From Clostridia bacterium (GTDB lineage Bacteria; Bacillota; Clostridia; UMGS1840): a stretch of DNA of 64,000 nucleotides. The stretch is from NCBI GenBank assembly GCA_017468465.1, contig JAFUIN010000018.1, forward strand, positions 9,766 to 73,765. Reading direction: 5' to 3'. This document shows, one piece after another, positions 3,801-31,108 of this stretch. Position 1 is the first letter of the stretch; each line of letters begins with the position of its first letter. The notes under the pieces are model-generated. The model was not told where the DNA came from, ran no database searches, and saw nothing but the letters and a program-made list of their open reading frames with translations. Both the position numbers and the translations under genes were made by a program.

Positions 3801-3976
3801 AATGATCCTCCTATAGTAAATTAGTAATCCGATACTAAAAATTTTTCCGAACAAACTATCTAATTAAGTATAGCACAAATTTTAGCTTCTGTCAATTATA
3901 TAACAGTATTATTTCTCTTCCTTTTTGAAAATAATCAAAATATTGGAAAAACCTTTTCCAAATCCGGAAAAAATAC

Positions 3977-4983: not shown

Positions 4984-6361
4984 TATGTCACCCAAAAAGA
5001 ATCCCATGCCTCATCAGGACCCCAATGTGCGCAACAAAAACTTTCAGGAGGTTGCATTGGGTTATACTTTGGAGCAGGCAAAAGACGAAGCGGAAAGATG
5101 CTTGCAGTGTAAGCATAAACCGTGCGTAGGCGGATGCCCTGTTGCCATTGATATTCCTGCCTTTATTCAGAAAATTAAGGAAGAAGATTTAGAAGGAGCG
5201 TATGAAATTATCAATCGTTCCAGCTCTTTGCCTGCTGTTTGCGGCAGAGTGTGTCCCCAGGAAACTCAGTGTGAAGCACGTTGTGTCAGAGGAATCAAAG
5301 GGGAACCGGTTGCTATTGGACGTCTGGAACGTTTTGTTGCAGACTGGCATCGTCTGAATGTAGAAAAAGAGCCCAAGCTTGCAGCGAAAAACGGACATAA
5401 GGTAGCGGTAATCGGTGCCGGTCCGGCAGGGTTAACCTGTGCGGGGGATTTGGCGAAAGCCGGATGCGAGGTTACCATTTTTGAGGCACTTCACGTTGCC
5501 GGAGGGGTTTTGGTATACGGAATTCCGGAATTTCGTTTGCCAAAAGCCATTGTTCATGACGAAATTGAAAAGCTCAAACAAATTGGTGTAACCATTGAAA
5601 CCAACACTGTAGTCGGAAAAGCAGTATCGGTTGATGAGCTGTTTGAAGAAGGTTTTGAAGCCGTGTTTATCGGTTCCGGAGCGGGGCTTCCCAGATTTAT
5701 GAATATCAAGGGTGAAAACTTAAATGGCGTATTTTCCGCCAACGAGTTTTTAACCCGTATCAATCTGATGAAAGCTTACCGTGAGGATTCTTCCACTCCT
5801 GTTCACCACGGGAAAAACGTGGCAGTTGTGGGAGGCGGTAATGTTGCTATGGATGCCGCACGCTGCGCAAAACGGCTGGGTGCAGAAAATGTTTATATTG
5901 TATACCGTCGTTCGCTGGATGAAATGCCTGCCAGAAAAGAAGAAGTGGAGCACGCAATGGAAGAAGGCATTATCTTCAAAGTGCTTTGTAACCCAGTGGA
6001 AATTCTGGGAGATGAAAACAACTTCGTTTCCGGCTTACAATGTGTGGAAATGGAACTTGGAGAGCCGGATGAATCGGGCAGAAGAAAACCGGTTGTAAAA
6101 GAAAACAGCCAGTTTTTGCTGGATGTAGATTGTGTGATTATGTCGATCGGAACTTCTCCCAATCCGCTCATTAAAAGCACCACCAAGGGGTTGGAAACCA
6201 ACAAGCACGGCTGTATTGTTACCGAAGAAAACGGCTTAACCTCTCGCGAGGGTGTCTATGCCGGTGGTGATGCGGTAACGGGGGCTGCAACCGTAATTCT
6301 GGCAATGGGTGCCGGAAAAACCGCAGCACATTCCATTTTGGAATATTTGGAAAATAAATAA
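4976..6361 (+). CDS. nfnB: NfnB / glutamate synthase small-chain-like NADPH oxidoreductase subunit
   Basis: 461 aa with N-terminal Cys clusters (CLQCKHKPCVGGCP), a GAGPAGL dinucleotide fold and a second GGGNVAMD fold. Confidence 0.85.
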   Translation: MPNMSPKKNPMPHQDPNVRNKNFQEVALGYTLEQAKDEAERCLQCKHKPCVGGCPVAIDIPAFIQKIKEEDLEGAYEIINRSSSLPAVCGRVCPQETQCEARCVRGIKGEPVAIGRLERFVADWHRLNVEKEPKLAAKNGHKVAVIGAGPAGLTCAGDLAKAGCEVTIFEALHVAGGVLVYGIPEFRLPKAIVHDEIEKLKQIGVTIETNTVVGKAVSVDELFEEGFEAVFIGSGAGLPRFMNIKGENLNGVFSANEFLTRINLMKAYREDSSTPVHHGKNVAVVGGGNVAMDAARCAKRLGAENVYIVYRRSLDEMPARKEEVEHAMEEGIIFKVLCNPVEILGDENNFVSGLQCVEMELGEPDESGRRKPVVKENSQFLLDVDCVIMSIGTSPNPLIKSTTKGLETNKHGCIVTEENGLTSREGVYAGGDAVTGAATVILAMGAGKTAAHSILEYLENK

Positions 6362-6365
6362 AAAA

Positions 6366-6401
6366 ATGGTTACCTGCAAGAAACAGGTAACCATTTTTTT
6401 T
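6366..6401. terminator. Bidirectional intrinsic terminator (nfnB / patatin gene)
   Basis: Perfect 11-bp stem ATGGTTACCTG/CAGGTAACCAT with an A-run before and a T-run after. Confidence 0.7.
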
Positions 6402-7665
6402 AGGATGGGATTAAATCAAAGGTGGCAAGGTAAAAAGCAGCAACCGATTCTTTTGGAAACAGACCGGCAACCCGAAAAATTGCCTCCGGCGTTTTGGAAA
6501 ACAGCAGTGCTAAAAATATGGTTACAGCTTTTTGGTCCAGTTGTTTTAGAAAATTGCCCTTCAGGGAAAGCTTTTTCTTTTGAAAATTTTCATACACTTC
6601 GTTTATGTTTTTTTCTTCCATAACCGATAGAACCCGATGTTTTAATGTCTCGTGGAAGGAATCAAAGGTGTAGAGGGTAAGAGGAGATAATTCCAAAATG
6701 CTTCCTGCTGTTTCTGCGGCGGTTTCCAGCATGACAGGAAAGGTTAAGGGGCGTGTGGTGCTGCCCTGCAGAAATTTTTCCATGGCGGTATAGGCTGATA
6801 AATCTAAAAGATTGCCTTTCAACCGACGATTTTGGAAAAATTCCTTTTGTTTTTTTAATGTGACGTGCTTGCTTTTTGCCAAACGGGAAAACTCATGCTT
6901 GGCAAAGGTAAAAAGAGTTCCGTCAAAGAAGGAAAAGGCTTTTAAGGTGTCTAAATAGCCCAAACGGATATTTCGTTTTGCGGTGTCCTTTTCAAAAATC
7001 AGAAAATTACCCAAATCGTACCGGGGGCAGATGTAGACTGTGTTTTTATCGTTTGACAGCTCTTTAATGTTTGTTTGCACCAGACCTACCGATTCCAAAT
7101 TGACCACAATCAATCGGTCTGCGCCTCTCTTTTTGGCAAGGGAAACGGGCATATTATCATAATATCCGCCGTCGATGTATTCAGTGCCTCCGATACTGTG
7201 GCTTTTGACTGCCGGATAGCAGGAGGCGCTTGCTAAAAGATAGTCGTTGAGTTTTCCGTGAGGGATTTCGTCTGTGTATAGCTGACAAGGTTCGAGCCCT
7301 TTCTTTTTTACGGTTACCAATCCAAATTCGACAGGGGAAAGGCGAATTGTGTTTTCGTCAAGACAGGTTTCCAAAAGGTTTTTCAATCCGTCGGCAGTAG
7401 CTCCGCCACGTCGGAAGAATTCTTTGGCATATTCAGACAAGGTAGCTTTTTCTTTCAAGTCAAAGACCATTTTGGTGTCGATGGTTTCCCAGACCTTCAA
7501 AGCAGTATCAAAAGAATTTTGCGCAATGAGCGCACCGTTTAAGGCACCGACGGAGGTTCCTGTCACAATATGGATGGGAATATCCATTTCACGCAGTGCC
7601 TGCCAGACACCGATTTGGTATGCACCACGGGAGCCGCCCCCTGCTAAAACCAATGCGGTTTTCAC
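6400..7665 (-). CDS. Patatin-like phospholipase
   Basis: GGGSRGAYQIG oxyanion motif, GTSVGA (GxSxG) and DGGYYDN Asp motif. Start placed at the GTG at 7665 after AAAGAGGTG. Confidence 0.85.
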   Translation of the reverse strand: MKTALVLAGGGSRGAYQIGVWQALREMDIPIHIVTGTSVGALNGALIAQNSFDTALKVWETIDTKMVFDLKEKATLSEYAKEFFRRGGATADGLKNLLETCLDENTIRLSPVEFGLVTVKKKGLEPCQLYTDEIPHGKLNDYLLASASCYPAVKSHSIGGTEYIDGGYYDNMPVSLAKKRGADRLIVVNLESVGLVQTNIKELSNDKNTVYICPRYDLGNFLIFEKDTAKRNIRLGYLDTLKAFSFFDGTLFTFAKHEFSRLAKSKHVTLKKQKEFFQNRRLKGNLLDLSAYTAMEKFLQGSTTRPLTFPVMLETAAETAGSILELSPLTLYTFDSFHETLKHRVLSVMEEKNINEVYENFQKKKLSLKGNFLKQLDQKAVTIFLALLFSKTPEAIFRVAGLFPKESVAAFYLATFDLIPS

Positions 7666-7856
7666 GAAAATCACCTCTTTTTCTGCACGATGATGCGATA
7701 TGTAATATAGAAGAAACGCTTGCTTTTTTATTAGTATATCGCATTTATTGCAAAATATCAACTAAAAAATGGATAAAGTTGTGACGAATTATTTGACAGG
7801 GTGGGGCTTTTATGATATGATACAAGTAAGAAAATTTTGGAAAGGAAACAAATGCT

Positions 7857-8660
7857 ATGGCAAAAATTGTAGCAAAAAAATCTTTGGGACAAAACTTTTT
7901 GCAGGATACTTCGGTTATTGAAAACATAGTGATGCAGTCAGGAGTCAACAAAGATACCGACGTGCTGGAAATCGGTCCCGGTCTTGGTGCAGTAACCGAC
8001 TTGCTGGTAGAACGGGCGCGAAAGGTAGTGGCAGTGGAAATTGATGACCGCCTATATCATAATCTTGTGAAAAAACATGGAGACAGAGACAATTTTTCCA
8101 TTCTCAATCAGGATATTCTGGAAACCGACCTTTCCAAAATTGTGACGGATAATATGATTGTTGTGGCAAATTTGCCCTATTATATTACAACTCCCATCAT
8201 CACCATGCTGGTAGAGAATCCCTGTGGGCTGAAGTCGCTGACGGTGATGGTACAGTTAGAGGTGGCAAAGCGTATCTGTGCCGACCACACGCAAAAAGAT
8301 TACGGTGCTATTTCGGTGTTTTCCAATTATCATTGTGATACCGAGCTATTGTTTACCGTGCCGCCGGAAGCCTTTGACCCTGTTCCGAAAGTTACCTCTG
8401 CAGTTATGAAATTAACCTTCCGGAAAGAAAAAGCGGTATCACCCCGGGATGAAAAGCACTTTTTCTCGGTGGTAAAAGCGGCGTTTTCCAACAGAAGAAA
8501 AACTTTGGCAAACTGCCTGATGCAGAATTTCAAGCTGGGGCGTGAAGAGGTCAATGCGCTGCTTTCGTCCTGCGGACTTTCGGAAACTGTCCGCGGTGAA
8601 AAGCTCAGCCTGGAGGAGTTCAGGACATTAAGTGATAAAATGCTGTCTTGTAAAAAATAA
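7857..8660 (+). CDS. rsmA: 16S rRNA (adenine1518/1519-N6)-dimethyltransferase
   Basis: 267 aa with KKSLGQNFL, EIGPGLG and NLPYYI motifs. TTGACA-17-TATGAT promoter at 7793-7821. Confidence 0.9.
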   Translation: MAKIVAKKSLGQNFLQDTSVIENIVMQSGVNKDTDVLEIGPGLGAVTDLLVERARKVVAVEIDDRLYHNLVKKHGDRDNFSILNQDILETDLSKIVTDNMIVVANLPYYITTPIITMLVENPCGLKSLTVMVQLEVAKRICADHTQKDYGAISVFSNYHCDTELLFTVPPEAFDPVPKVTSAVMKLTFRKEKAVSPRDEKHFFSVVKAAFSNRRKTLANCLMQNFKLGREEVNALLSSCGLSETVRGEKLSLEEFRTLSDKMLSCKK

Positions 8661-8696
8661 AGAATCAATTTTTTTGAGAAAAATTAGAAAAAACAC

Positions 8697-8725
8697 TTGC
8701 AAAATAAAATAGGATGTGTTATAGT
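8697..8725 (+). promoter_or_regulatory. Predicted promoter of the PEPCK gene
   Basis: TTGCAA, 17-nt spacer, TGT-TATAGT. Confidence 0.5.
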
Positions 8726-8824
8726 AATGGTATAATGGCTGAGAATAGGATTTTTTCAAAAACCATTATGTTGAAAATTGATTAAAAATTTATTCTATAA
8801 ATAAGAAAAAAGGAGTTTTTGACA

Positions 8825-10576
8825 ATGACAGACAACAAATTTGTGTTAAGCTGGGTTGAAGAAATGAAAGCCCTTGTAAAGCCCGCTAACGTAGTATGGA
8901 TTGACGGTTCCGAAGAACAGCTGGAAAGCTTAAGAGAACAGTCTTGCAAATCCGGCGAAATGATCAGACTGGATCAGGAAAAACTGCCGGGATGCTTTTA
9001 TCATAGAACTGCGCAGAACGACGTTGCTCGTGTAGAAGACAGAACCTTTATCTGTGCAGAAAGCGCAGAAGAAGCCGGCCCCACCAACAACTGGATGGAC
9101 CCCAAAGCTGCTTACGAAAAATTAGGCAAGCTGTTTGATGGCTCCATGGCTGGAAAAACCATGTATGTAATTCCCTTCATTATGGGTGTGTTAGGCTCTC
9201 CCTTCTCTAAAGTTGGTATCGAGCTGACCGACAGCATCTATGTTGTGCTGAACATGGCAATTATGACCCGTGTTGGCATTCAGGCAGAAAAACAGCTGGG
9301 CGACAGCGCAGACTTCACCAAATGCTTACACGCTTGTAAAGATGTAAACCCCGATGAAAGATGGATTATGCACTTCCCCCAGGACAACACCATCTGGAGC
9401 ATCAACTCCGCATACGGCGGAAACGTATTGCTGGGTAAAAAATGTCTGGCTCTCAGAATTGCAAGCTATTTAGGTAAAAAAGAAGGCTGGATGGCTGAAC
9501 ACATGCTCATCTTAGGTCTGGAAAATCCGAAAGGCGAAGTAAAATACATTGCTGCAGCATTCCCGTCTGCTTGTGGTAAAACCAACCTGGCAATGTTAAT
9601 TCCGCCCGCTATCTTAAAAGGCTATAAAGTATACACCGTAGGTGATGATATCGCTTGGATTCGTGTTGGTAAAGACGGCAGACTCTGGGCTATGAACCCC
9701 GAAGCAGGCTTCTTCGGTGTTGCGCCGGGTACCTCTAACAAAACCAACCCCAACGCATTGGCTACTACCATGAAAAACACCATCTTCACCAACGTATTCT
9801 TAAAAGACGATAACACTGTTTGGTGGGAAGGTATGGACGGTGATGCTCCGGCATCCGGTATCGACTGGCTGGGCAATCCCTGGACTCCCGAAAGCGGTGT
9901 AAAAGGTGCACATCCCAACTCCAGATTTACCGCTCCGGCTGCACAGTGCCCCTGCATTTCTCCCGAATTTGAATCTACCGAAGGTGTTCCGCTGTCTGCA
10001 ATCGTATTTGGCGGCAGACGTGCAAAAACTGCTCCGCTGGTATACCAGTCCTTCAACTGGAACCACGGTGTATTCATGGGTGCTACCATGGCTTCCGAAA
10101 CCACCGCTGCTGCTGCAGGTCAGGTTGGTGTGGTTCGCCGTGACCCCATGGCTATGATTCCCTTCTGCGGATACAACATGGGTGACTACTTCCAGCACTG
10201 GCTGGATATGGGCACCAAAACCGATAAACTGCCCTTAATCTTCCACGTAAACTGGTTCAGAACCAATGCAGACGGCAAATTCATCTGGCCCGGCTTTGGT
10301 GACAACATTCGTGTACTGAACTGGATTTTGGCAAGATGTGCAGGCGAAGTTGACGCTGTAGAAACTGCAATCGGTTACCTGCCCAAGAAAGAAGATTTAG
10401 ACTTAACCGGTTTAGACATTTCTGATGAAGTGTTAGACGAACTGTTAAGCGTTGATAAAGAAGTTTGGCTGGAAGAAACCAAAGGCATCGGCGAATTCTT
10501 TGCAAAATTTGGCGACAGATTACCCAAAGAATTGGCTGCTGAACTGGAAAACTTAAAAGCAAGACTTTCTAAATAA
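8825..10576 (+). CDS. pckG: Phosphoenolpyruvate carboxykinase (GTP)
   Basis: About 583 aa with the FPSACGKTN kinase-1a motif and GTP-PEPCK length. Start set at ATG 8825, 9 nt after AAGGAG. Confidence 0.9.
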   Translation: MTDNKFVLSWVEEMKALVKPANVVWIDGSEEQLESLREQSCKSGEMIRLDQEKLPGCFYHRTAQNDVARVEDRTFICAESAEEAGPTNNWMDPKAAYEKLGKLFDGSMAGKTMYVIPFIMGVLGSPFSKVGIELTDSIYVVLNMAIMTRVGIQAEKQLGDSADFTKCLHACKDVNPDERWIMHFPQDNTIWSINSAYGGNVLLGKKCLALRIASYLGKKEGWMAEHMLILGLENPKGEVKYIAAAFPSACGKTNLAMLIPPAILKGYKVYTVGDDIAWIRVGKDGRLWAMNPEAGFFGVAPGTSNKTNPNALATTMKNTIFTNVFLKDDNTVWWEGMDGDAPASGIDWLGNPWTPESGVKGAHPNSRFTAPAAQCPCISPEFESTEGVPLSAIVFGGRRAKTAPLVYQSFNWNHGVFMGATMASETTAAAAGQVGVVRRDPMAMIPFCGYNMGDYFQHWLDMGTKTDKLPLIFHVNWFRTNADGKFIWPGFGDNIRVLNWILARCAGEVDAVETAIGYLPKKEDLDLTGLDISDEVLDELLSVDKEVWLEETKGIGEFFAKFGDRLPKELAAELENLKARLSK

Positions 10577-10596
10577 TAAGAAAATTGCATGAAAAA

Positions 10597-10627
10597 ACTC
10601 TGCTCAAGCTCTGAGCAGAGTTTTTTG
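10597..10627 (+). terminator. Intrinsic terminator after the PEPCK gene
   Basis: 10-bp stem ACTCTGCTCA/TGAGCAGAGT followed by TTTTTT. Confidence 0.75.
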
Positions 10628-10847
10628 TTATAAAGCATTTGTACGATTGGAAACCTGTGTGCTTTTTTTGGAGTGAAGGAGAGATCACGAACAACAGCAG
10701 TTTTCTCTCCTTCCGTCTATTGCTGTGGGGATAGCCAAAACATATCACACCAAAGGAAAAATGTCCATATTTTTCAAAAAAAAGATTGTAATTTTTCCCC
10801 ATTTAAGATATACTATAGAAAGACTGATATAAAAAAGGAGTTTTTTT

Positions 10848-12101
10848 ATGAAGTGTGCAATTATAGCCGTTGGAACCGAAGTGGTTTCCGGCGACATCGT
10901 AAATACAAATGCCCCTTATATTGCCAATGTGTTGAAGCCCTACGGTATTCGTACAGTGCTTCAAATGGCAGTGGAAGATACCGAAAAGGATATTATAAAG
11001 GCGGTAAAGAGAGGCTTAAAAAAGGCAGAGCTGGTGATTACTACCGGCGGGCTTGGTCCTACCTATGACGATATTACCAAAAAAGCGGTGGCGCGCGTGT
11101 TGGAACGGGAATTGGTGCGGGACGAATATTCGGTGGAAATGCTCAATTTATATTTTCGCCGTGCGGAAAAAAAGATGACTGAAAGTAATCTCAGCCAATG
11201 TTATTTTCCAAAAGGTTCTCGTGTGATTCAAAACCCCAACGGTACTGCGCCGGCAAGCATTACTCACACCAAAAAAGGAACGGTGATGATGCTGCCCGGG
11301 CCTCCGGTGGAGGTTTCGGCACTCTTAAAAACCGAGGACATTCAAAACTATCTGGAAAGCTTAAAAACCGAAGAAATTATGGAAACTACCATAAAATTTT
11401 TTGGCATTGGAGAGTCGCATCTGGAAGAGCTTTTGTCCGATTATATGAAAAAAGAGGACAATCTGATTTTAGCACCCTATGCCAAAACCGGTGAAGTGCA
11501 GCTGAAGATTACTGCAAAGGGCAAAACTCACGAGCAAGCGAAGGAATTGACCGATTCCTTAAAAGAAAAGCTTTATGAAATTGTAGGAGAATATATCTAT
11601 GCCGAGGGAAATCAATCCTTGGAAGAGGTTCTTCTTGCCTCTCTTTTGGAAAACAGACAAACGCTGGTGACGGCAGAGTCTTGCACCGGGGGACTCATTG
11701 GTGAAATGATGACTGCAATCCCCGGTTCTTCAGAAGTGTATGCCGGTGGGGTGGTAACCTATTCCAATCAGCTAAAAATGCGCCTGGTGAGCGTTTCCGA
11801 GGAAACCCTGGCAGAATATGGTGCAGTGTCAAAGGGCACAGCCTGTGAAATGGCAGAGGGCGCCAGAAAGAACCTGGGTGGCGACATCGGTATTTCGGTC
11901 ACAGGGATTGCAGGTCCCGGTGGCGGAACCGATGAAAAACCGGTAGGGCTGGTGTATATCGGTGTTTCTACCCGAGAGAAAACCGACGCTTACCGATTCC
12001 ATTTTGTTGGAAATCGGGAGAAGGTGCGCACCCTTTCCGCAAAAAATGCACTCCACCTGGCACTTCAGGCATCCAAACAACTGGGCAAAATCGAAAAATA
12101 G
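10848..12101 (+). CDS. cinA: CinA family competence/damage-inducible protein (MoCF-binding domain plus PncC-type NMN amidohydrolase domain)
   Basis: 417 aa with the typical two-domain layout and the conserved cinA-recA gene order. TTGTAA-17-TATACT promoter at 10786-10814. Confidence 0.85.
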   Translation: MKCAIIAVGTEVVSGDIVNTNAPYIANVLKPYGIRTVLQMAVEDTEKDIIKAVKRGLKKAELVITTGGLGPTYDDITKKAVARVLERELVRDEYSVEMLNLYFRRAEKKMTESNLSQCYFPKGSRVIQNPNGTAPASITHTKKGTVMMLPGPPVEVSALLKTEDIQNYLESLKTEEIMETTIKFFGIGESHLEELLSDYMKKEDNLILAPYAKTGEVQLKITAKGKTHEQAKELTDSLKEKLYEIVGEYIYAEGNQSLEEVLLASLLENRQTLVTAESCTGGLIGEMMTAIPGSSEVYAGGVVTYSNQLKMRLVSVSEETLAEYGAVSKGTACEMAEGARKNLGGDIGISVTGIAGPGGGTDEKPVGLVYIGVSTREKTDAYRFHFVGNREKVRTLSAKNALHLALQASKQLGKIEK

Positions 12102-12132
12102 AACATTTGTTCGATTTTTTTGTCAAAATCTA

Positions 12133-12160
12133 TTGACATTTGTAAAAATTTTGCTATAAT
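12133..12160 (+). promoter_or_regulatory. Predicted recA promoter
   Basis: TTGACA, 16-nt spacer, TGC-TATAAT. Confidence 0.6.
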
Positions 12161-12209
12161 GGGGATAAGAAATGAAGATTGCCCGAGTGGGGAAAGGAAT
12201 ATAGAAACC

Positions 12210-13271: not shown

Positions 13272-13847
13272 TTATTTGTAGCCGTGTAACACGGGGGATA
13301 ATCGTTTGTAGATTAAAAAGGCGATGGCCACGTTCAAAAGTCCTTTTACGAGGGTAAAGGGAAAATTCATGTAAATGAGAGCTGTCCACAAATCAGTCAC
13401 ATAGGGGTTAATTGCCTGATACATTTTAATGATGGTTTCCATAGGTAAAAAGGCAGTATAAATTGGATACACAATGTAATAGTTGGTAAAAATTCCAATC
13501 ACAGCCATAGAAAATGCTCCGATCAGAGAGCCAATCAGTGCGCCGGAACGGTTTTTCTTACGCTGATACAGCCACCCTGCAGGGGTTACAAACAGCACCC
13601 CCAACAAGAAGTTGGAAAGTGCACCGCCCAAGCCGCCGGAGGACATAAACAGATTGAAAATGTTTTTGACCAGACACACTGCAATGCCGCTTAGCGGACC
13701 AAAGGCAAAGGCTGCCAGAAGTGCAGGTAAATCGGAAAAATCCATCTTGATAAAGGACGGCATAATAGGAATGCTGAAATTAAGCAGAGTCAGCACGGTG
13801 GAAACGGCAGCAAGAAGTGCCGTTACAGTTAATTTTCTTGTTTTCAT
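13272..13847 (-). CDS. ribU: ECF transporter S component, riboflavin-specific (RibU-like)
   Basis: 191-aa multi-TM protein of S-component type, directly downstream of an FMN riboswitch. Confidence 0.75.
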   Translation of the reverse strand: MKTRKLTVTALLAAVSTVLTLLNFSIPIMPSFIKMDFSDLPALLAAFAFGPLSGIAVCLVKNIFNLFMSSGGLGGALSNFLLGVLFVTPAGWLYQRKKNRSGALIGSLIGAFSMAVIGIFTNYYIVYPIYTAFLPMETIIKMYQAINPYVTDLWTALIYMNFPFTLVKGLLNVAIAFLIYKRLSPVLHGYK

Positions 13848-13857
13848 TTTTGGTTCC

Positions 13858-13990
13858 TTTCTTTCATCCTGACTGTAACGGTCGGTATTGGAATTTCACC
13901 AATTCAGCTCAGATTTTTGAGCGCGTGGACTGTCTGCCAAGTGCGGCACTTACCACCGGTCGGGAATTTCACCCTGTCCTGAAAGTATAT
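13858..13990 (-). promoter_or_regulatory. FMN riboswitch (RFN element)
   Basis: The minus strand reads AGGACAGGGTGAAATTCCCGACCGGTGGTA...GGTGAAATTCCAATACCGACCGTTACAGTCAGGATGAAAGAAAGG, which matches the conserved RFN core blocks. The P1 3' strand abuts the ribU RBS, suggesting translational control. Confidence 0.85.
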
Positions 13991-23826: not shown

Positions 23827-24882
23827 ATGGAACTAAAATTAAACGGAAAAAACTACAATTCCAATATTTATATTGAAAAGGAACTCTTAAAAACTGCCGG
23901 TCTGTATGCCAAAAAGCTCACAGACGGGAACGTATTTGTTGTAACTGATTCCAACGTGTTTCCTTTGTATTTTGAAACAGTTCGCACTGCTTTGGAAGAA
24001 CAAGGGCTCAGGGTTTCTTACTACGTTATCCCTGCGGGAGAAGCTTCAAAGTCGCTCTCTATGCTTGGGGTATTGTATGAAGAATGTGTCAAAAACCGCA
24101 TTACCAGAACCGACCTGATTGTAGCATTAGGCGGCGGTGTGGTTGGCGATTTGACAGGATTTTTAGCAGCAACCTATCTTCGTGGTGTTCGTCTGATGCA
24201 AATTCCCACAACATTTCTCGCACAGATTGACTCCTCCGTGGGTGGAAAAACTGCCATTGATTTGCCCTCCGGAAAAAACCTTGTGGGTGCATTTTATCAG
24301 CCCAATGTGGTTCTCATAGATCCGGATACACTCTCAACTCTGTCAGACAAAATTTTTGCTGACGGTATGGCAGAAGCCATTAAATACGGCTGCATCAGAG
24401 ACCGGGAGCTTCTGACGCTGTTAGAATCGCCCAAAGAACATCTTACCCAAATCATTACCCGTTGTGTTACCATCAAAAAAAATGTGGTACAGCAAGATGA
24501 ATTTGACACCGGAGAACGGATGATATTAAACTTTGGGCATACCGTAGGCCACACCATCGAAAAAGCGGGAAACTACATCGAATACACCCACGGTCAGGCG
24601 GTAGCTGTTGGGATGGTGTGTATCGTACAAATAGGGCTGATGCTGGGGAAAATTTCAGAAGAAGAAGCATCGCAAGTTATTTCGCTGATCCGGTCAGCCA
24701 ATCTTCCTCTCTCGGTGCCCTATGATAAAGACGAATGTTTGAAAACCGTCTCTACTGACAAAAAAATGATGGGGGCAACACTGAATGTTGTGTTACCCAA
24801 AGGCCTGGGGGATTGCACCGTGGAGCAATGGAATCCCGATGACTTTGTTAATATGGCAAAAGAAACAGATGTTTTCCTATAA
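23827..24882 (+). CDS. aroB: 3-dehydroquinate synthase
   Basis: 351 aa with GGGVVGDLTGF and SSVGGKTAIDL motifs. Confidence 0.9.
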   Translation: MELKLNGKNYNSNIYIEKELLKTAGLYAKKLTDGNVFVVTDSNVFPLYFETVRTALEEQGLRVSYYVIPAGEASKSLSMLGVLYEECVKNRITRTDLIVALGGGVVGDLTGFLAATYLRGVRLMQIPTTFLAQIDSSVGGKTAIDLPSGKNLVGAFYQPNVVLIDPDTLSTLSDKIFADGMAEAIKYGCIRDRELLTLLESPKEHLTQIITRCVTIKKNVVQQDEFDTGERMILNFGHTVGHTIEKAGNYIEYTHGQAVAVGMVCIVQIGLMLGKISEEEASQVISLIRSANLPLSVPYDKDECLKTVSTDKKMMGATLNVVLPKGLGDCTVEQWNPDDFVNMAKETDVFL

Positions 24883-24886
24883 AAAA

Positions 24887-24926
24887 AGAGGAACAGAAAC
24901 GTAACGCTTCTGTTCCTCTTTTTTTA
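24887..24926. terminator. Bidirectional terminator (aroB / phage-like cluster)
   Basis: 12-bp stem AGAGGAACAGAA/TTCTGTTCCTCT with an A7 run before and a T7 run after. Confidence 0.8.
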
Positions 24927-25118
24927 TTCATTGGGATACATTGCTTCCTTAAGACGCTGTTCCATTCTCTTTACCACAAAGCTTTCCCGTGCTTTTGGAG
25001 GAGCTTTTTTGGTAGGCGTTTTCTCCTTTGCTGCAAGTTGCATAGAAATCCGGTGAAGCAGAAAAAGCTTCATCAGCTCTGTCCCTAACATCACTAACAA
25101 AATCAGAAGTTCTATCAT
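24924..25118 (-). CDS. Small single-TM protein (holin-like size), unknown function
   Basis: 64 aa with a hydrophobic N-terminus (MIELLILLVMLG) and a Lys-rich tail. Its start overlaps the upstream stop (ATGA). Confidence 0.4.
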   Translation of the reverse strand: MIELLILLVMLGTELMKLFLLHRISMQLAAKEKTPTKKAPPKARESFVVKRMEQRLKEAMYPNE

Positions 25119-26905
25119 TTTCTACGCTCCTTTTTCATTTCTAAATACACATTCAGCACCGAAAATTTTTCGGTTTGCCCGACATCAGTCTGCCCCTCAA
25201 TTTCCAAACGGAAAAAATTGCCGGATACATTTGGTGTACACCTGGTTTCTGTAAAATCACTATGAAAATATCGGTGGTTCCACTGCGATTTTCCATAGAT
25301 CAGATGGCTTGTGTTCTCCAGCTTTTCTGCTTTACATTCCTGCTCGGAAGAAAGCTTTACCTCGCAGTCCAGATGATTGAAGCATCCCTTCACTTTCACA
25401 ACCATTTGTGTGCAACGGGCAATTTCGTTTTCATTGACAGAGGGAAGCACCCCAAAACAAACACGATATGAAATCGGCTCATCGGTGTCGGTTTCCGGCT
25501 GATAATCAAAGTGACATTCAGCATCAAATCCTACCACATAGTTCCCACGTCCCAGAAGAAGCCGTCCGCTGTAATCTTCTGCGATGCAGCGGCAGGCAAT
25601 TCCCTCATAGCAGGTAAAGGCACCGGAGGAAACGTGATATATCAATATCTTATCATCCAATACCAGATAATATTTTCCCTGTCTGTAATACGCAAACGCA
25701 TTGTTTGGGGACTGCGGAAGTGTCACCTTTCCCTTTGATAAAAACTTATAAAGCGAGCTGGAGGGAGAATATAGCATTTGAACCGTCAGCATGGAGGAAG
25801 AAAACGACATCAGCTCTCCGTTGGAATAAAAGCTGACACTGCCCGGTGTCAGACAAATTGTGCTTCCGAATTTTGTTCCGTTTGGAACACTTAGTAAGGA
25901 CCATTGCCCATCTTCTGTAGGGTCGGAACCGACATAATGGCTCCAGCCGTATTCATAACAAACCACCACCGATTTTTCCACCACCAAAAGCCCGGTAATT
26001 TTTCCAAGATTCAAGTGGGGGTAAAGCACATTCACTTCTGAAAAGCTGCACCAGTTATTCGGTTCGCTGATATAAAGTGCGGTCGGATTTTTTTTGTTTC
26101 CTGCTGCAAAATAACGCATGGAGGGCGGGTGCCACACAAAATGCTTGCAGGAAAATGCCGTCTGTGTCACCCCCGGTAAATCCAACACATCCGGAAATAT
26201 ATCGGAAAGAGAGGTCATCTCGCTGATAGAAAAAAAGGTGTGCTCATAGTAACCTTTTTTCATATCTACCGTAATTTTGCTCCCTGCCGTATATTTCATA
26301 AAAACTGCACCGCCTATTTTCCCCAATCGGATAAACGGCGCTTGTTTTATCAGCTCATGAATGTTTTCCTTCGATGCGTTGGTGCGGTTGTCGCAGTAAT
26401 ACAACACGCCCGTATCACTGTCTATAATATGATGCCCAAACAAATCAGCCGGAAAGTCTCCGTCTGTGGTGTAGTCATCCTCCAGCTGCTCCAGAAACAG
26501 GCACAAATTCTGAGGCTCCTCCAATGTAATTTCTCCGTCGCATCTGCGATATAAGGGAAGCATGGTTTTTCCGATTCCCCCAAACAAAAAGCCGTAACCG
26601 CCGGTGGTGTGAATTACCTGAATGCCGGAGGCGTGCATTGTCAGATTACAGTTTGTTCCTGCTACCACAATTTCTGCTGTCGGTGCGGTATCCACCAGCA
26701 AAATTTCGTGTCCTTTCGGGCTTAACAGCTTGTGAATGCCTTTTACCTCATTGGAAAAAGGCCCGTAAATCTTTTTGGTTCCGTCACGAACCGTCAGTCC
26801 GCCGTTTTCAATTTCAAAATTACTGATATCCTCCACTTCGTCGCTTTTCATCAGATAAGGGGACTTGCAGTTTACCATTCCACCTGAAAAATCGTAATAA
26901 TCCAT
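25115..26905 (-). CDS. Phage structural protein, possibly a T7 gp12-type tail tubular B / nozzle protein
   Basis: 596 aa, beta-rich. The N-terminal pattern DFSGGM...(N)...GGLTVRDG resembles my recollection of nozzle-protein N-termini (LKGGIS...GLQKRP). Position follows an adaptor-like gene. RBS GGAGGT. Confidence 0.4.
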   Translation of the reverse strand: MDYYDFSGGMVNCKSPYLMKSDEVEDISNFEIENGGLTVRDGTKKIYGPFSNEVKGIHKLLSPKGHEILLVDTAPTAEIVVAGTNCNLTMHASGIQVIHTTGGYGFLFGGIGKTMLPLYRRCDGEITLEEPQNLCLFLEQLEDDYTTDGDFPADLFGHHIIDSDTGVLYYCDNRTNASKENIHELIKQAPFIRLGKIGGAVFMKYTAGSKITVDMKKGYYEHTFFSISEMTSLSDIFPDVLDLPGVTQTAFSCKHFVWHPPSMRYFAAGNKKNPTALYISEPNNWCSFSEVNVLYPHLNLGKITGLLVVEKSVVVCYEYGWSHYVGSDPTEDGQWSLLSVPNGTKFGSTICLTPGSVSFYSNGELMSFSSSMLTVQMLYSPSSSLYKFLSKGKVTLPQSPNNAFAYYRQGKYYLVLDDKILIYHVSSGAFTCYEGIACRCIAEDYSGRLLLGRGNYVVGFDAECHFDYQPETDTDEPISYRVCFGVLPSVNENEIARCTQMVVKVKGCFNHLDCEVKLSSEQECKAEKLENTSHLIYGKSQWNHRYFHSDFTETRCTPNVSGNFFRLEIEGQTDVGQTEKFSVLNVYLEMKKERRK

Positions 26906-26911
26906 AGTGTG

Positions 26912-27442
26912 CTACCTCCACTTCGGTGCTTGAATCGACGCCGGCTTTCTTCTTGCTTTTTTTGTCATACTGCTATGGATTGCCGCACAGTTGTCATAGA
27001 ATTCTTCTACCAGCTTGTCTGCCAGCCGATTGGACGGGTCATCGCTTCGCAACACAGAAAACGCTACATATTTGCATAGCTCTCCTTCATATTCGGGTGC
27101 AACCGGAATATTTTCGTTTTCCGACAAGCGCCCCGAAAACCCTTGATAATAATACACAAGATACTCTCCCTGGTGGGAAACAAACAATCCGATTTCGTCC
27201 AAATGGTATTCCAAATATCGGCTTTTCTCCCGATATATTTTATAAATTCCTTTATTTTGCGGAATAGAGACAGGTGTTTCGGGGTCGCTTACAATCACTC
27301 GCACACACTTTACTGGGCAAGCAGTGGGATACTGTGCAGTTAACAGCAAAAGCCCTTCTGTCAGATAAATATTTGCCAGTGACGTATCAATTTGTTTCCC
27401 AATTAAAACTGATGCCACATCTGCGATTTCTTTTAAGGTCAT
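26912..27442 (-). CDS. Phage structural protein, possibly a gp11-type head-tail adaptor
   Basis: 176 aa. Size, position and loose N-terminal and C-terminal pattern similarity to T7 gp11 as I recall it. RBS AAGGAGG. Confidence 0.35.
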   Translation of the reverse strand: MTLKEIADVASVLIGKQIDTSLANIYLTEGLLLLTAQYPTACPVKCVRVIVSDPETPVSIPQNKGIYKIYREKSRYLEYHLDEIGLFVSHQGEYLVYYYQGFSGRLSENENIPVAPEYEGELCKYVAFSVLRSDDPSNRLADKLVEEFYDNCAAIHSSMTKKARRKPASIQAPKWR

Positions 27443-27466
27443 AGTTTGTCCTCCTTTTTTATAATG

Positions 27467-27859
27467 TTACAGAAAACGGGTGGAAAAAGCTTTATCATCT
27501 ACCCATTCTCTGGATTCGTGAGTGTTCAGATAAGAAAGTACTTCCTTGGTTTTTTCGGAAGATTCCTCTCCGAAGTTTCCCATTGTTTTTTCTAATTTTT
27601 GGTTGTGTTCATCCATTTCCCGAATCAGTCTGTTCATATTGGAAACGGCAGTTTTTCGCACAAGTTCCACGGTTCTTGCATCCAGCTCGGCATAAGGAAC
27701 AGTCAAACAAAAGGTTGTGTGCGGTTGGTCCTTGTGATGCACCTCGAAGGTTTTCTTATGATGATTTCGCACCACAAAATACCCCGCATCAATTTCCAAA
27801 AGCCGTTCCGGAATCTGATACACATTGGTGTTTAATTTGGTTAAATGCGGTTGTAACAT
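27467..27859 (-). CDS. Hypothetical protein of the phage-like cluster
   Basis: 130 aa, RBS AAAGAGGTG, no recognised motif. Confidence 0.5.
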   Translation of the reverse strand: MLQPHLTKLNTNVYQIPERLLEIDAGYFVVRNHHKKTFEVHHKDQPHTTFCLTVPYAELDARTVELVRKTAVSNMNRLIREMDEHNQKLEKTMGNFGEESSEKTKEVLSYLNTHESREWVDDKAFSTRFL

Positions 27860-27874
27860 GTTGCACCTCTTTAT

Positions 27875-27905
27875 AAAAAAAGAAGCTGCGACATTTCGTC
27901 ACAGC
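27875..27905 (-). terminator. Intrinsic terminator immediately after the capsid gene
   Basis: Minus-strand RNA GCUGUGAC-GAAAU-GUCGCAGC (8 bp, one GU pair) followed by UUCUUUUUUU. Confidence 0.6.
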
Positions 27906-27954
27906 CTCTCTCGTTTGGCATTTTTGTTTGCCGCTTGTTTCAAAAATGTCCTGA

Positions 27955-29103
27955 TTACGCGGTAATTCCCTTTAATCTTGCCTGTCCGCCCGGATGGTCG
28001 CACAGCAGCTCGCCGTATTTTGCCAAAACGGCTGTCCATGCAGGTTTGCCGGCAATCTGTTTTAAGATTTTTCCGTCATCATCCAGCCAGTCCCAATCGG
28101 ACAGGGTGTGCATTGCGAAGGATTTGGAGTTTAACAAATCCATGGTACCATCAGGACAATGACGGTCAGCAACCAACGGAATTCCGCTGAAGGAAATTGC
28201 CTGGAATCCGCCTTCTAAAGTCATGGGGTCAATATTTCTTCTGGTTAATTCCAGGTAAGAAAGATAGTTTCTTCTCACGTCATAAGAGCAAGAAATATAG
28301 TCTACAGTGCTTCCGGCATTTTCTTCTAAGTAATCAATCGCAGTCTGAATTTTCAAGTCAGAAATTGCACCGGTGTTTTCGGAAATATACGGCATCATCC
28401 AGTAGTTTTCGCTACGGTCTACACCGTATAAAGGTTGAGTAGTATCGGAAGTTAAAATAGCTCCTAACCCGGTAATTTCTTTCTGGTAAGAATTCTGAAC
28501 TGTGATTTTATCGCCCACAGAAGCTGTCACATTGCTGTCTAACACAACAATCTTTTCAGGACGGTTAATGGCAACAATTCTTTTTGCTTTTTCGGTGGAG
28601 GAGGGGCCAATGATGTCAATAATCATCCCCTCCATCAGATATTTCACCGAATCCACCTGTACACTGTTGTCGTTACTGTCTTCCACGGTTGCAATGACTC
28701 CGGTACCGTCGGTGAACAGTGCTCTGGAATAGTTGAATTTGGCTGCTTCTAAAATGCCTTTCATTTCCTGTGTGAGTAAATCCACAAAGGAGTTGGTGTT
28801 GAGACGAGACGCTTTCATCGCCTTATCGGAAATTTCAATTACTCCGTACATATCTTTGGTGGTAGTCTCAAAGTGAGTATATTTGTTGGAACCTGCCTGC
28901 GGAAGATTGCCGGAATCGGAAGAAAAACCGAAACCGCCGTTTAACGCGTAGGGGGCAAGTCTTACCACCTTATGCCCGATAATGTTTTTGGAGGTTGTAA
29001 CAATTTTGTTGTAAAAAGGGTTGGTATTTGTGTTTAACTGGTTTCTTAAAACGTCCAGATAAAAGCTTTTCAGCGCCGCATCTGCTGTGTTGGTAGTAAT
29101 CAT
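27955..29103 (-). CDS. HK97-fold phage major capsid protein
   Basis: 382 aa. The central block KYTHFETTTKDMYGVIEISDKAMKASR...LTQEMKGILEAAKFNYSRALFTDGTG parallels the HK97 gp5 pattern (...VQASRQVMDD...LLNGDGTG). Follows a scaffold-like gene. Confidence 0.75.
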   Translation of the reverse strand: MITTNTADAALKSFYLDVLRNQLNTNTNPFYNKIVTTSKNIIGHKVVRLAPYALNGGFGFSSDSGNLPQAGSNKYTHFETTTKDMYGVIEISDKAMKASRLNTNSFVDLLTQEMKGILEAAKFNYSRALFTDGTGVIATVEDSNDNSVQVDSVKYLMEGMIIDIIGPSSTEKAKRIVAINRPEKIVVLDSNVTASVGDKITVQNSYQKEITGLGAILTSDTTQPLYGVDRSENYWMMPYISENTGAISDLKIQTAIDYLEENAGSTVDYISCSYDVRRNYLSYLELTRRNIDPMTLEGGFQAISFSGIPLVADRHCPDGTMDLLNSKSFAMHTLSDWDWLDDDGKILKQIAGKPAWTAVLAKYGELLCDHPGGQARLKGITA

Positions 29104-29158
29104 AATAAAAAGTCCTTTCCTGTCTGCCAGGGGGTGAACAATTTCACTCCCCCGACAG

Positions 29159-29689
29159 TTATTTTTTCACCATCTGAAGAAATAAATCGCCCGCTTCTTC
29201 AAAGGTTTTGGGTTTCGTACCCGGAGTGGTGTAAAACTCACCGCCTTGTCCGGAAATCAGTGCCGGGGGCGTTTGAGACAAGCGCTCCATATACTCACGG
29301 TAGGGCGCAGGAGGAGTTGTGAGCGCTCGTTTTGCAAGGGTAAAGGCAGAAGACAAATCCAAAGACAAAAGCTCCGGATTTTCTGTCAGATAAGAGATAA
29401 ATTCGTAAGCCCGATGGGTTAAGGCGTTCTCTTCCAAGAAGGCGTCAAGGTCATTTTGAAACTGTGTCATCTCATCCGGGATAGTTGCCTCCTCCAGAAG
29501 TTCTCTTGCCTCTTTCAGTTCTTCTCTGGTCTGAGAAATATATCGTTCACTTTCCCGATAAGCCTTTTCCAGCTCACCATAGTCTTTGAACTTGCCGAGA
29601 ATTAAAGGGGTGTCCCCATTCTCTCCCTGATCGGTCTCACTTGCCGGCGGAATTGCTTCCAACGCAGCGTCGGTCAGATTGTCAATCAT
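29159..29689 (-). CDS. Phage scaffolding-like protein
   Basis: 176 aa, acidic and helical. The ILGKFKDYGELEKAYRESE motif is common in phage scaffold/head-assembly proteins. Lies directly upstream of the capsid gene. Confidence 0.6.
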   Translation of the reverse strand: MIDNLTDAALEAIPPASETDQGENGDTPLILGKFKDYGELEKAYRESERYISQTREELKEARELLEEATIPDEMTQFQNDLDAFLEENALTHRAYEFISYLTENPELLSLDLSSAFTLAKRALTTPPAPYREYMERLSQTPPALISGQGGEFYTTPGTKPKTFEEAGDLFLQMVKK

Positions 29690-29895
29690 TGGTATTCATT
29701 CCTTTCTGTGTTTGTTTCTAAAAAAGCCGAACACGGTCGGCAAAGAAAAGCGGGAAAACCGATATGATTACCACTCCGGGGACTTTCTTCGGCTTCCGCA
29801 CCAACAGTATGCCAAAAATGTTGCTTCTTTACAAGTTCAACATTTTTTCAGCTTTTTTCAAACAATTTTTCTCCCAAAAAATACGTCTGTTTTTA

Positions 29896-29924
29896 TTGAC
29901 AATTACAAAAAAAGGTAGTATAAT
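29896..29924 (+). promoter_or_regulatory. Predicted serCA promoter
   Basis: Consensus TTGACA, 17-nt spacer, TATAAT. Confidence 0.65.
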
Positions 29925-30025
29925 TATTTTAATATTTGGAAAGCACATTGTTAAAAAACAGACAAAGTGCTTCAAATATAAAAATTTGACCGAAAAACAA
30001 AGAAAACAGAATGGGGAATCACATC

Positions 30026-31108
30026 ATGGAAAGAGTATACAATTTCAGCGCAGGGCCGTCTGCGTTACCGGTAGAGGTATTAAAAAAAGCGGCAGATGAA
30101 ATGTTAAATATGGGTGGTACAGGCATGTCCGTTATGGAAATGAGCCACCGTTCCAAAGATTATCAGGCAATTATTGACCGTGCAGAAGAGCTGTTTCGCG
30201 AGCTGATGGAAATTCCGGATGATTATGCCGTGTTATTCCTGCAGGGCGGTGCATCCTCTCAGTTTGCCATGATTCCTCTGAACCTGATGAACAACAGCGG
30301 AAAAGGGGATTATGTTATCACCGGTCAGTGGGCAAAAAAAGCCTACCAGGAAGGGGCGCACTATGGCGATGCTTATCAGGTAGCCTCCAGTGCTGATAAA
30401 ACCTTCTCCTACATTCCCAAATTAGATAAATCCATGTTCCGTCCCGATGCAGACTTTGTACATATCACCTTAAATAACACCATCTACGGAACCAAATTCA
30501 ACGAGCTGCCCGACGTGGGAGACGTTCCGCTGATTGCGGATATTTCTTCTTGCATTTTGTCCGAAAAGCTGGATGTTTCCAAATTTGGCATGCTTTATGC
30601 AGGTGCACAGAAAAACATTGGCCCGGCAGGTCTTACCGTGGTGATTATCCGTAAAGATTTAATCGGCAACGCCCGGGATATTACACCCATTATGTTCAAC
30701 TATCAGACTCACCTGGATTCCGGTTCTATGTATAACACTCCTCCCACCTACGGCATCTACATCTGCAAATTGGTGCTGGAATGGTTGAAAGATTTAGGCG
30801 GTGTGGAAAAAATTCAGGAATTAAACTACAAAAAAGCAAAAATTTTATATGATTATTTAGATTCTTCCGAGTTCTTTACCGGAACCGTGGTAAAAGAAGA
30901 CCGTTCCATTATGAACGTTCCCTTCCTTTCACCCTCTGATGAACTGAATAAAAAATTCATTCAGGAAGCAAAAGAAGCCGGCCTTGTAAACTTAGCAGGT
31001 CACCGCAGTGTTGGCGGTATGCGTGCAAGTATTTACAATGCAATGCCCGTGGAAGGCGTGCAGGCGCTGGTGGACTTTATGAAAAAATTTGAAGCAGAAA
31101 ACAAGTAG
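30026..31108 (+). CDS. serC: Phosphoserine aminotransferase
   Basis: MERVYNFSAGPSALP N-terminus typical of SerC, class V aminotransferase. Confidence 0.9.
   Translation: MERVYNFSAGPSALPVEVLKKAADEMLNMGGTGMSVMEMSHRSKDYQAIIDRAEELFRELMEIPDDYAVLFLQGGASSQFAMIPLNLMNNSGKGDYVITGQWAKKAYQEGAHYGDAYQVASSADKTFSYIPKLDKSMFRPDADFVHITLNNTIYGTKFNELPDVGDVPLIADISSCILSEKLDVSKFGMLYAGAQKNIGPAGLTVVIIRKDLIGNARDITPIMFNYQTHLDSGSMYNTPPTYGIYICKLVLEWLKDLGGVEKIQELNYKKAKILYDYLDSSEFFTGTVVKEDRSIMNVPFLSPSDELNKKFIQEAKEAGLVNLAGHRSVGGMRASIYNAMPVEGVQALVDFMKKFEAENK

Follow-up and report, generated by a model that had tools for sequence, protein, structure and literature searches.

Why would a Clostridia chromosome keep intact genes for a podovirus-like capsid and tail nozzle between aroB and serC? 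The question is raised by a module of six tightly packed open reading frames (ORFs, here A to F) on the minus strand at 24924-29689 of a 64-kb stretch of DNA (the window: contig JAFUIN010000018.1, assembly GCA_017468465.1, Clostridia bacterium UMGS1840; coordinates are positions within it). The module is flanked by aroB (23827-24882, +) and serC (30011-31108, +). A previous reading made from the letters alone (the sequence-only reading) had taken it for an orphan gene set without a portal and had offered a domesticated capsid-forming module, a satellite that borrows its missing parts or a very recent deletion as explanations. Here, we show that the module is old and under selection, and by homology a matching portal is kept at a second fixed locus in genomes of the same clade, so that the module is not an orphan. 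By analogy with known systems we consider it fairly probable that both loci belong to a domesticated particle system resembling a gene transfer agent (GTA), which spore-forming gut Clostridia of one clade would carry in two or more separate loci. In the following, loci of relatives are labelled L007 to L186, the portal cluster P0155 and protein families f0 to f46.

Proteins, age and selection of the module

The six genes are, in order of transcription:

A, 29159..29689, minus strand: scaffolding protein by homology, shortened form, 176 aa
B, 27955..29103, minus strand: major capsid protein by family match, podovirus/SU10-type, 382 aa
C, 27467..27859, minus strand: small conserved protein of family f10, 130 aa
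D, 26912..27442, minus strand: probable head-to-tail adaptor, 176 aa
E, 25115..26905, minus strand: tail nozzle / tail hub protein by predicted fold, 596 aa
F, 24924..25118, minus strand: protein with one N-terminal hydrophobic segment and a basic tail, 64 aa

The gaps between the genes are short (A-B 55, B-C 95, C-D 24 and D-E 6 nt), E and F share a 4-nt ATGA overlap, and a purine-rich ribosome binding site precedes each start (from A to F AGAAAGGAA, AGGAAAGGA, AGAGGTG, AAGGAGG, GGAGGT and AAGGAG). The six co-oriented ORFs, their ribosome binding sites, the overlap and a terminator on the aroB side had all been described from the letters alone and are found as described.

The capsid protein is the best defined of the six. 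B matches the NCBIfam model NF033394 (capsid_maj_Podo) with 217 bits against a cutoff of 80 (E 3.5e-64, residues 5-380) as well as phrog_14242 (4.1e-51, residues 5-371), and by a family-model match above the curated cutoff it is a podovirus-type major capsid protein. An HK97 fold would follow from membership in this family. B itself has no Pfam match, its homologues carry PF17236 (SU10_MCP), and a search of PDB sequences with the capsid-family profile gave no match. The nearest capsids of cultured phages, those of Arthrobacter phage Jasmine and Microbacterium phage Shocker, are about 27% identical. A matches the hidden Markov model (HMM) of the scaffold family f1 at 8.9e-45, and hhalign of f1 against f46 gives 99.3%. 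The family of A sits between portal and capsid in about 70 related clusters, and by homology A is a scaffold; since it aligns by BLAST to both the N- and the C-terminus of the 330-aa scaffold of L008, it appears to be a shortened one.

Scans of Pfam, PHROG and NCBIfam returned nothing usable for C, D, E and F. C matches the f10 HMM at 9.9e-45 and, by BLAST, the 107-aa protein at the same position in L008 (1.5e-10). D is orthologous to f5, a 187-aa protein that lies between capsid and nozzle in the full clusters (hhalign 95.2%, E 2.5e-8; controls below 1%). A single f5 member out of 47 family members matches the head-tail adaptor family phrog_442, weakly at 0.006. The C-terminal W-R of D is invariant. 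A single-sequence AlphaFold2 model of D was unusable (predicted local distance difference test, pLDDT, 39), and neither the D-family profile nor a profile of D plus f5 matched PDB sequences. Position, size and orthology to f5 suggest that D is probably the head-to-tail adaptor. E was modelled by AlphaFold2 from an alignment of 31 homologues with a pLDDT of 83.6 and a predicted template modelling (TM) score of 0.83. When this model is compared with the PDB by Foldseek, each of the 30 best matches is a chain from a podovirus nozzle or tail complex (E 1e-14 to 2e-9, probability 1.0), among them Pa223 (1.2e-14), SU10 (5e-13), T7 gp12 (2e-10) and P22 gp10 (2.8e-10), and also Pan3, PhiM1, Kp7 and Sf6 gp8. 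The TM score against solved nozzles reaches 0.6 (normalised on the target) at a sequence identity of 7-12%, and the nozzle-family profile found no match among PDB sequences. E is furthermore an ortholog of f3 (HMM 1.8e-13; hhalign 98.7%) and, judged by its modelled fold, is a tail nozzle. F has its hydrophobic segment at residues 1-23 by hydropathy analysis. It is kept with the same overlapping start in L007, L011, L091, L093 and L094, has no detectable relatives outside the window clade and is missing from the sister clusters L095 and L097. The first description of A as scaffold-like, of B as major capsid protein, of E as a T7 gp12-type nozzle and of F as a protein with a single hydrophobic segment is borne out by these searches. 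An encapsulin nanocompartment was ruled out by the nozzle E and the portal conserved in the clade; no encapsulin family was matched in Pfam or NCBIfam.

The sequence-only reading had seen no signs of decay, and it had asked whether relatives carry the same genes under purifying selection. No relative examined has lost or damaged any of the six genes. These relatives comprise six metagenome contigs of the same species, further species (L007/L013, L011, L012, L093/L094) and the deep lineage L091, whose nozzle shares only 38% identity and whose module has other flanking genes. The clusters of the E family (n=31) are all about 596 aa long. Pairwise ratios of nonsynonymous to synonymous substitution rates (dN/dS) are 0.05-0.10 for the capsid B and 0.12-0.21 for the others (A about 0.2, C 0.16-0.21, E 0.12-0.19), and synonymous sites have reached or passed saturation. 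The deepest comparison gives identities of 82% for the capsid, 77% for LeuB, 58% for AroB, 39% for E and 37% for D. The conservation of the capsid matches that of SerC, SerA and LeuB, and the serC/serA/leu context is kept around the module in clade relatives. The GC content of the module (0.442) equals that of its flanks (0.437 and 0.432), and its composition is fully ameliorated. E evolves fast and is yet under purifying selection. Intact genes, saturated synonymous divergence and dN/dS of 0.05-0.21 mean that the module is old and selected, and recent deletion and neutral decay are excluded. Genes of a GTA should be chromosomally fixed, vertically inherited and under purifying selection, and synteny, dN/dS and composition give this picture here. 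The domesticated capsid-forming module considered earlier is supported.

These data bear directly on two of the other explanations. An ordinary decaying prophage remnant or a recent deletion product, without function, would account for a module that locally has no terminase, portal, fibre, lysis or integrase genes. However, the same genes are intact in all relatives across saturated divergence, the capsid is as conserved as housekeeping enzymes, the composition is ameliorated, promoter and leader are conserved, a portal is conserved at a second locus, and the conserved serC/serA/leu context contradicts recent horizontal copies. The very recent deletion is refuted by these observations, and we regard a functionless remnant as extremely improbable. 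Equally hard to believe is a capsid-forming phage satellite, similar to the capsid-forming phage-inducible chromosomal islands (cf-PICIs), that uses the terminase and tails of a helper. Such an element would bring its own capsid, scaffold and connector-side proteins and would need no local terminase or fibres, as seen here. On the other hand, the module has no integrase and no replication or regulatory module: Pfam, PHROG and NCBIfam detect no integration, excision or replication domains in the six proteins, host genes adjoin both module ends, no att-like direct repeats were found flanking the module, and no tRNA genes lie in the window. It occupies a fixed site and is inherited vertically, and the portal, being on another contig among fixed host neighbours, could not be mobilised with it as a unit. 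The satellite of the sequence-only reading is therefore very unlikely.

The uneven rates within the module can be read in another way. Structural proteins of an old prophage might poison or hijack the assembly of related podoviruses without forming an autonomous particle of their own, a kind of capsid or scaffold interference known from satellites and some defence systems. Structural genes that persist without the rest of the phage would be expected in this case, the low identities of E (39%) and D (37%) against 82% for the capsid could reflect an arms race, and related true phages or prophages exist (the L123 provirus and a group of IMG/VR contigs of 27-69 kb with 32-34% identity). However, fast evolution of nozzle and distal tail is also normal in functional phage and GTA tails. 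At least seven assembly partners (portal, scaffold, capsid and C-F) are conserved and syntenic with dN/dS of 0.05-0.2, which fits particle production better. The six proteins match only capsid families in Pfam, PHROG and NCBIfam; no PADLOC scan was made. We consider anti-phage interference rather unlikely.

The portal locus behind spoIIIA and a shared promoter motif

A six-frame search of the whole 64-kb window with the terminase (f4) and portal (f2) profiles from relatives gave no match. The claim that virion parts are missing therefore holds for the window, but not for the genome, as clade relatives encode a portal at a separate locus. A search with the portal of L095 returned P0155 (locus tag J6A61_02280). 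The metagenome-assembled genome (MAG) that encodes it also contains the six-gene module, with J6A61_06745 as the E homologue. P0155 follows a complete spoIIIAA-AB-AC-AD-AE-AF-AG-AH series: an 80-aa ORF overlaps the portal start, a 614-aa P22/SU10-type portal and a 79-aa ORF come next, and then host genes. The arrangement of spoIIIAA-AH, a 43-82 aa ORF, the portal and a 76-81 aa ORF is found in 4/4 clade species inspected (L098, where the locus spans 5188-12182, L101, L103 and L186). The clade portal carries P22_portal and SU10_portal domains. Both small ORFs are conserved; the upstream one has a C-terminal motif SAIKRGMYNQ...SEA.KNV, the downstream one is coiled-coil-like, and hhalign found no relation of either to f8, f15, f26, f10 or f9.

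The portals form one tight clade of 18 clusters that are 65-92% identical to P0155, the next best match being 46%; the portal of the deep lineage (L186) is 65% identical. Tetranucleotide frequencies of portal loci and module loci correlate with r 0.91-0.98, and the deep pair L186/L091 reaches 0.98. The description of the module as an orphan without portal thus has to be given up: in the clade a portal is conserved behind spoIIIA in all four species and appears to be co-regulated with the module.

The regulatory features of the module are:

29806..29838, minus strand: promoter-like element upstream of A, GAACTTG-N20-CATACT (TTGTAA -35-like, CATACT -10-like)
29750..29799, minus strand: conserved stem-loop in the 5' leader, GCGGAAGCCGA...TCGGTTTTCCCGC
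29720..29741, minus strand: terminator-like hairpin with T-run in the leader, directly upstream of the ribosome binding site of A, from a pattern scan
24880..24923, no strand assigned: bidirectional hairpin terminator between F and aroB, read from the sequence as AAAAAAGAGGAACAGAAGCGTTACGTTTCTGTTCCTCTTTTTTT

The element upstream of A has the form TGAACTTGTAA-N17-CATACT and is conserved in five clade loci. Directly after the spoIIIAH stop, and before the pair of 80-aa ORF and portal, the portal operon has the element TGA(A/C)CTTGT(A/G/C)-N17-TACAAT. In a search of 239 kb on both strands, in which about 0.5 hits are expected by chance, the motif GAMCTTG-N18-21-YAYAMT occurs exactly once per clade locus, and only upstream of A or of the portal operon. 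The deep lineage has a variant, GAC(A)TTGAAA, at both promoters. Because the motif is shared by both loci and the deep-lineage variants match, we infer that the two loci are co-regulated and probably switched on together.

The stem-loop of about 50 nt that follows the promoter of A is nearly invariant in five species and recognisable in L091. RNAalifold predicts 12 pairs with almost no covariation, and a comparison with Rfam gave a chance-level match only, so no RNA family is claimed. This stem-loop may act as a regulatory leader. The hairpin at 29720-29741 is not conserved in sequence in other species, and a role as attenuator is speculation. The intergenic region between the module and the divergent serC is 320 nt long; serC has a promoter with perfect sigma-70 consensus (TTGACA-17-TATAAT, 29896-29924, +), back-to-back with the promoter region of the module. 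Elsewhere in the window an FMN riboswitch (RF00050, 101 bits) lies at 13852-13990 (-) upstream of a 191-aa ORF (13272-13847); it is ordinary and unrelated to the module.

The position of the portal raises the question of a link to sporulation. The portal is fixed immediately downstream of spoIIIAH across the clade, and no terminator-like site was found between spoIIIAH and the portal operon. On this basis a link between the particle and sporulation can be imagined: a sporulating mother cell would make the portal and, through the promoter motif common to both loci, the head and nozzle proteins as well, and lysis of this cell would release particles and account for the lack of an own holin or endolysin. 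If true, gene transfer or particle release would be timed by development in these endospore formers, but we regard such a coupling as quite improbable. The spoIIIA promoter of the portal-locus genomes is sigma-E-like (GTCATA-N16-CATAnAGT). A sigma-E promoter shared by module and portal was considered and rejected as unproven; only a CATA/TACA-like -10 is in common, and the -35 differs.

A candidate particle and its missing parts

How could the products of the two loci work together? In the GTA-like system that we favour, scaffold and capsid would assemble around a portal made from the spoIIIA-adjacent locus, and a terminase encoded elsewhere would fill the head with host DNA. D, as the putative adaptor, and the nozzle E would then close the portal vertex. 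In the assembly of P22 and T7, adaptor and nozzle join the portal after DNA packaging. We infer the terminase because a conserved adaptor and nozzle only make sense on a DNA-filled head. By analogy with the GTA of Faecalibacterium prausnitzii (FpGTA) and with the multi-locus RcGTA, the products may form small short-tailed particles that package host DNA. Functions for release and adsorption would be encoded elsewhere, or release would be supplied by cell lysis. If such particles are active, Clostridia of the animal gut would have in them a major and widespread means of exchanging DNA, with concrete candidate genes.

Several points weigh against this proposal. The particle system of the window clade is a prediction from its genes, and portal and module are linked by MAG binning and composition rather than by one closed genome. 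The two promoters have different -10 elements (CATACT vs TACAAT), and the case for co-regulation hence rests on the -35-proximal motif and the spacing. The neighbours of the window clade in the tree of major capsid proteins, which lie outside the large clade co-diverging with its hosts (see below), include a real provirus (L123). Genes for tail needle, fibres and lysis are found at neither locus, while the sister clusters L095 and L097 have them. A further point is the large terminase subunit (TerL). In a search that covered the 64-kb window and about 20 kb per relative locus, the f4 TerL profile found nothing in the window or at any clade locus. There is no TerL beside the portal in L098, L101, L103 and L186, nor beside that of the sister L095. 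A metagenome scan with the closest TerL type (L116, L147, L135) returned 80 loci, none of which has the tetranucleotide signature of the clade (maximum r 0.76) or combines a TerL standing alone with the promoter motif.

These absences are what one would expect if the proteins were used without DNA and without a terminase, with the shell or a portal-tail complex serving as a protein compartment, a secreted decoy or a sporulation-associated structure of the mother cell. No TerL was found in the window, beside the clade portal or beside the L095 portal, neither locus has lysis or fibre genes, and the portal directly follows spoIIIAH in all four species with no terminator-like site between them. 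However, the strong purifying selection on D and E is hard to explain without packaging, and the portal has its own promoter with a -35 unlike that of the sigma-E-like spoIIIA promoter of the same genomes. The absence of TerL, moreover, rests on about 64 kb plus about 20 kb per locus of each genome. We therefore consider a DNA-free use unlikely. Should the window clade truly be without a terminase, it would have kept a rare portal-capsid-nozzle machine for a function other than packaging.

Related clusters and known systems

The GTA-like reading gains context from the wider capsid family. Homologues of B make up 3107 clusters in the protein collection, and there are at least 489 matches in species-representative genomes; among the matches listed, most are from Christensenellaceae, Borkfalkia, Fimimonas and unnamed Clostridia MAGs from animal guts. 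Of the 80 loci returned, about 70 have the capsid gene in a conserved contiguous cluster of about 10 kb (about 70 of L014-L090, plus L106-L142; for example L019:4238-14547) with the order f9 > <f7 TerL (PF03237) > f8 > [f15] > portal (PF16510) > scaffold > capsid > [f10] > f5 > f3 > [f20/f41] > DUF7934. The flanks are host genes (polysaccharide deacetylase, SSB, RNase J, O-methyltransferase, U32 peptidase or IspG), and in a Pfam scan of all genes of L019, a representative locus of about 21 kb, no integrase or recombinase domains were detected. Where the adjacent RNase J diverges between loci, capsid, portal and TerL diverge with it (Pearson 0.91-0.97 for pairwise identities, n = 13-16). The correlation is as tight as in a host-vs-host control, and on average the capsid is better conserved than RNase J. 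This co-divergence indicates that the contiguous cluster has been domesticated and is passed on by vertical inheritance.

Many full-cluster genomes have RNase J directly downstream of the cluster, with f12 and f11 in between. The window has an RNase J gene as well (2133-3854, -), at a distance of about 21 kb from the module. In L008 and L069, f11, f12, serA and serC come next after the full cluster; the serC/serA neighbourhood is common to these loci and the window, but rearranged. Pairs of loci within L014-L090 share on average about 65% identity in the capsid, about 63% in TerL and about 48-56% in the portal, but only about 21% in the nozzle f3 and in the DUF7934 protein f6. Such uneven conservation suggests diversifying distal tail parts on a conserved head.

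Since E matches f3 and D matches f5, the window module corresponds to the scaffold-to-nozzle segment of this architecture. A-E are orthologous to the scaffold, capsid, f10, f5 and f3 of the contiguous cluster, and host-gene flanks, the lack of a recognisable integrase and strong conservation are common to both. In contrast to the contiguous cluster, which includes TerL (PF03237) and portal (PF16510), the window clade has no local TerL and has its portal behind spoIIIA; it is also without the DUF7934 and f20/f41 genes, and F is a gain of its own. The sister of the window clade in the tree of major capsid proteins is L095; L097, L106, L116 and L123 join these two next, at a position just outside the large clade that co-diverges with its hosts. 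L106, L116 and L135 have contiguous clusters with a window-type D or E beside TerL and portal, their terminases being of a different subtype, and L123 is a 48-kb provirus with a longer tail module. The system of the window clade may thus stem from a related but separate prophage capture. The closest outgroup, L095 (4040-13385; capsid 61% identical), has portal, scaffold, capsid, C, D, a nozzle of 667 aa, proteins of 276, 248 and 56 aa, an amidase_2 and a holin in a row, with host genes on either side and no terminase in the 4 kb upstream. The 500-nt gap before its portal holds two small ORFs, for a Cys-rich Zn-ribbon-like peptide and a hydrophobic peptide. The nearest true phages are probably a group of IMG/VR contigs of 27-69 kb (L143-L185), many from metagenome 3300045988, with capsids 32-34% identical to that of the window and TerL and portal of the same families.

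Among solved particles, the closest parallels are the tail machines of T7 (gp11/gp12), P22 (gp4/gp10) and SU10. The order of scaffold and capsid followed by adaptor and nozzle is the same, and the E model matches solved nozzles; in contrast to these phages, the window element does not constitute the genome of a virus. Very few lineages are known to have gene transfer agents. RcGTA and the GTAs of other alphaproteobacteria are domesticated tailed-phage particles that are vertically inherited and have their structural genes spread over several co-regulated loci. In contrast to the window system, they are siphovirus-like and built from other protein families, and their terminase is part of the main head-tail cluster. 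They are regulated by CtrA and GafA, for which no counterpart was identified in the window clade.

FpGTA, reported in 2026, is the first podovirus-like GTA in gut Firmicutes (PMC12946183). It is chromosomally fixed, has no integrase and replication genes and is near-ubiquitous in its host lineage (PMC12946183, Nat Commun 2026;17:2046). A 10.5-kb operon encodes the small terminase subunit (TerS), TerL, portal, scaffold, capsid and hypothetical proteins, and a second operon of 5.5 kb, 125 kb away, encodes baseplate, fibre and lysis genes; the capsids are about 40 nm in size and carry about 8.5-9 kb of host DNA (PMC12946183). In HGM11616 and QANA01, two genera that it assigned to Christensenellaceae (Christensenellales in the data table), the same study saw fragments of 4.1 kb and 6.3 kb packaged in a GTA-like manner, and no gene cluster was identified for them (PMC12946183). 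Our literature searches on spoIIIA plus portal and on GTA plus podovirus plus Clostridia did not find the element described. The contiguous-cluster family is likewise absent from the searched literature and offers testable candidate genes for the GTA-like packaging in gut Christensenellales.

Judged from its genes, the window system shares with FpGTA a fixed, podovirus-like set that is split over loci and has no integrase. FpGTA has a terminase and a lysis operon, whereas neither was found for the window clade at the inspected loci. Its TerL, portal and capsid are in one operon, whereas the split in the window clade falls between portal and scaffold. Its capsid (RCH50849.1) is annotated as N4-gp56, whereas NF033394 is the only NCBIfam model that the window capsid matches at E<=0.1. 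Membership in the FpGTA family was therefore rejected for the window system, the capsids being compared by family annotation. The window system is a lineage different from FpGTA that plausibly works in the same way.

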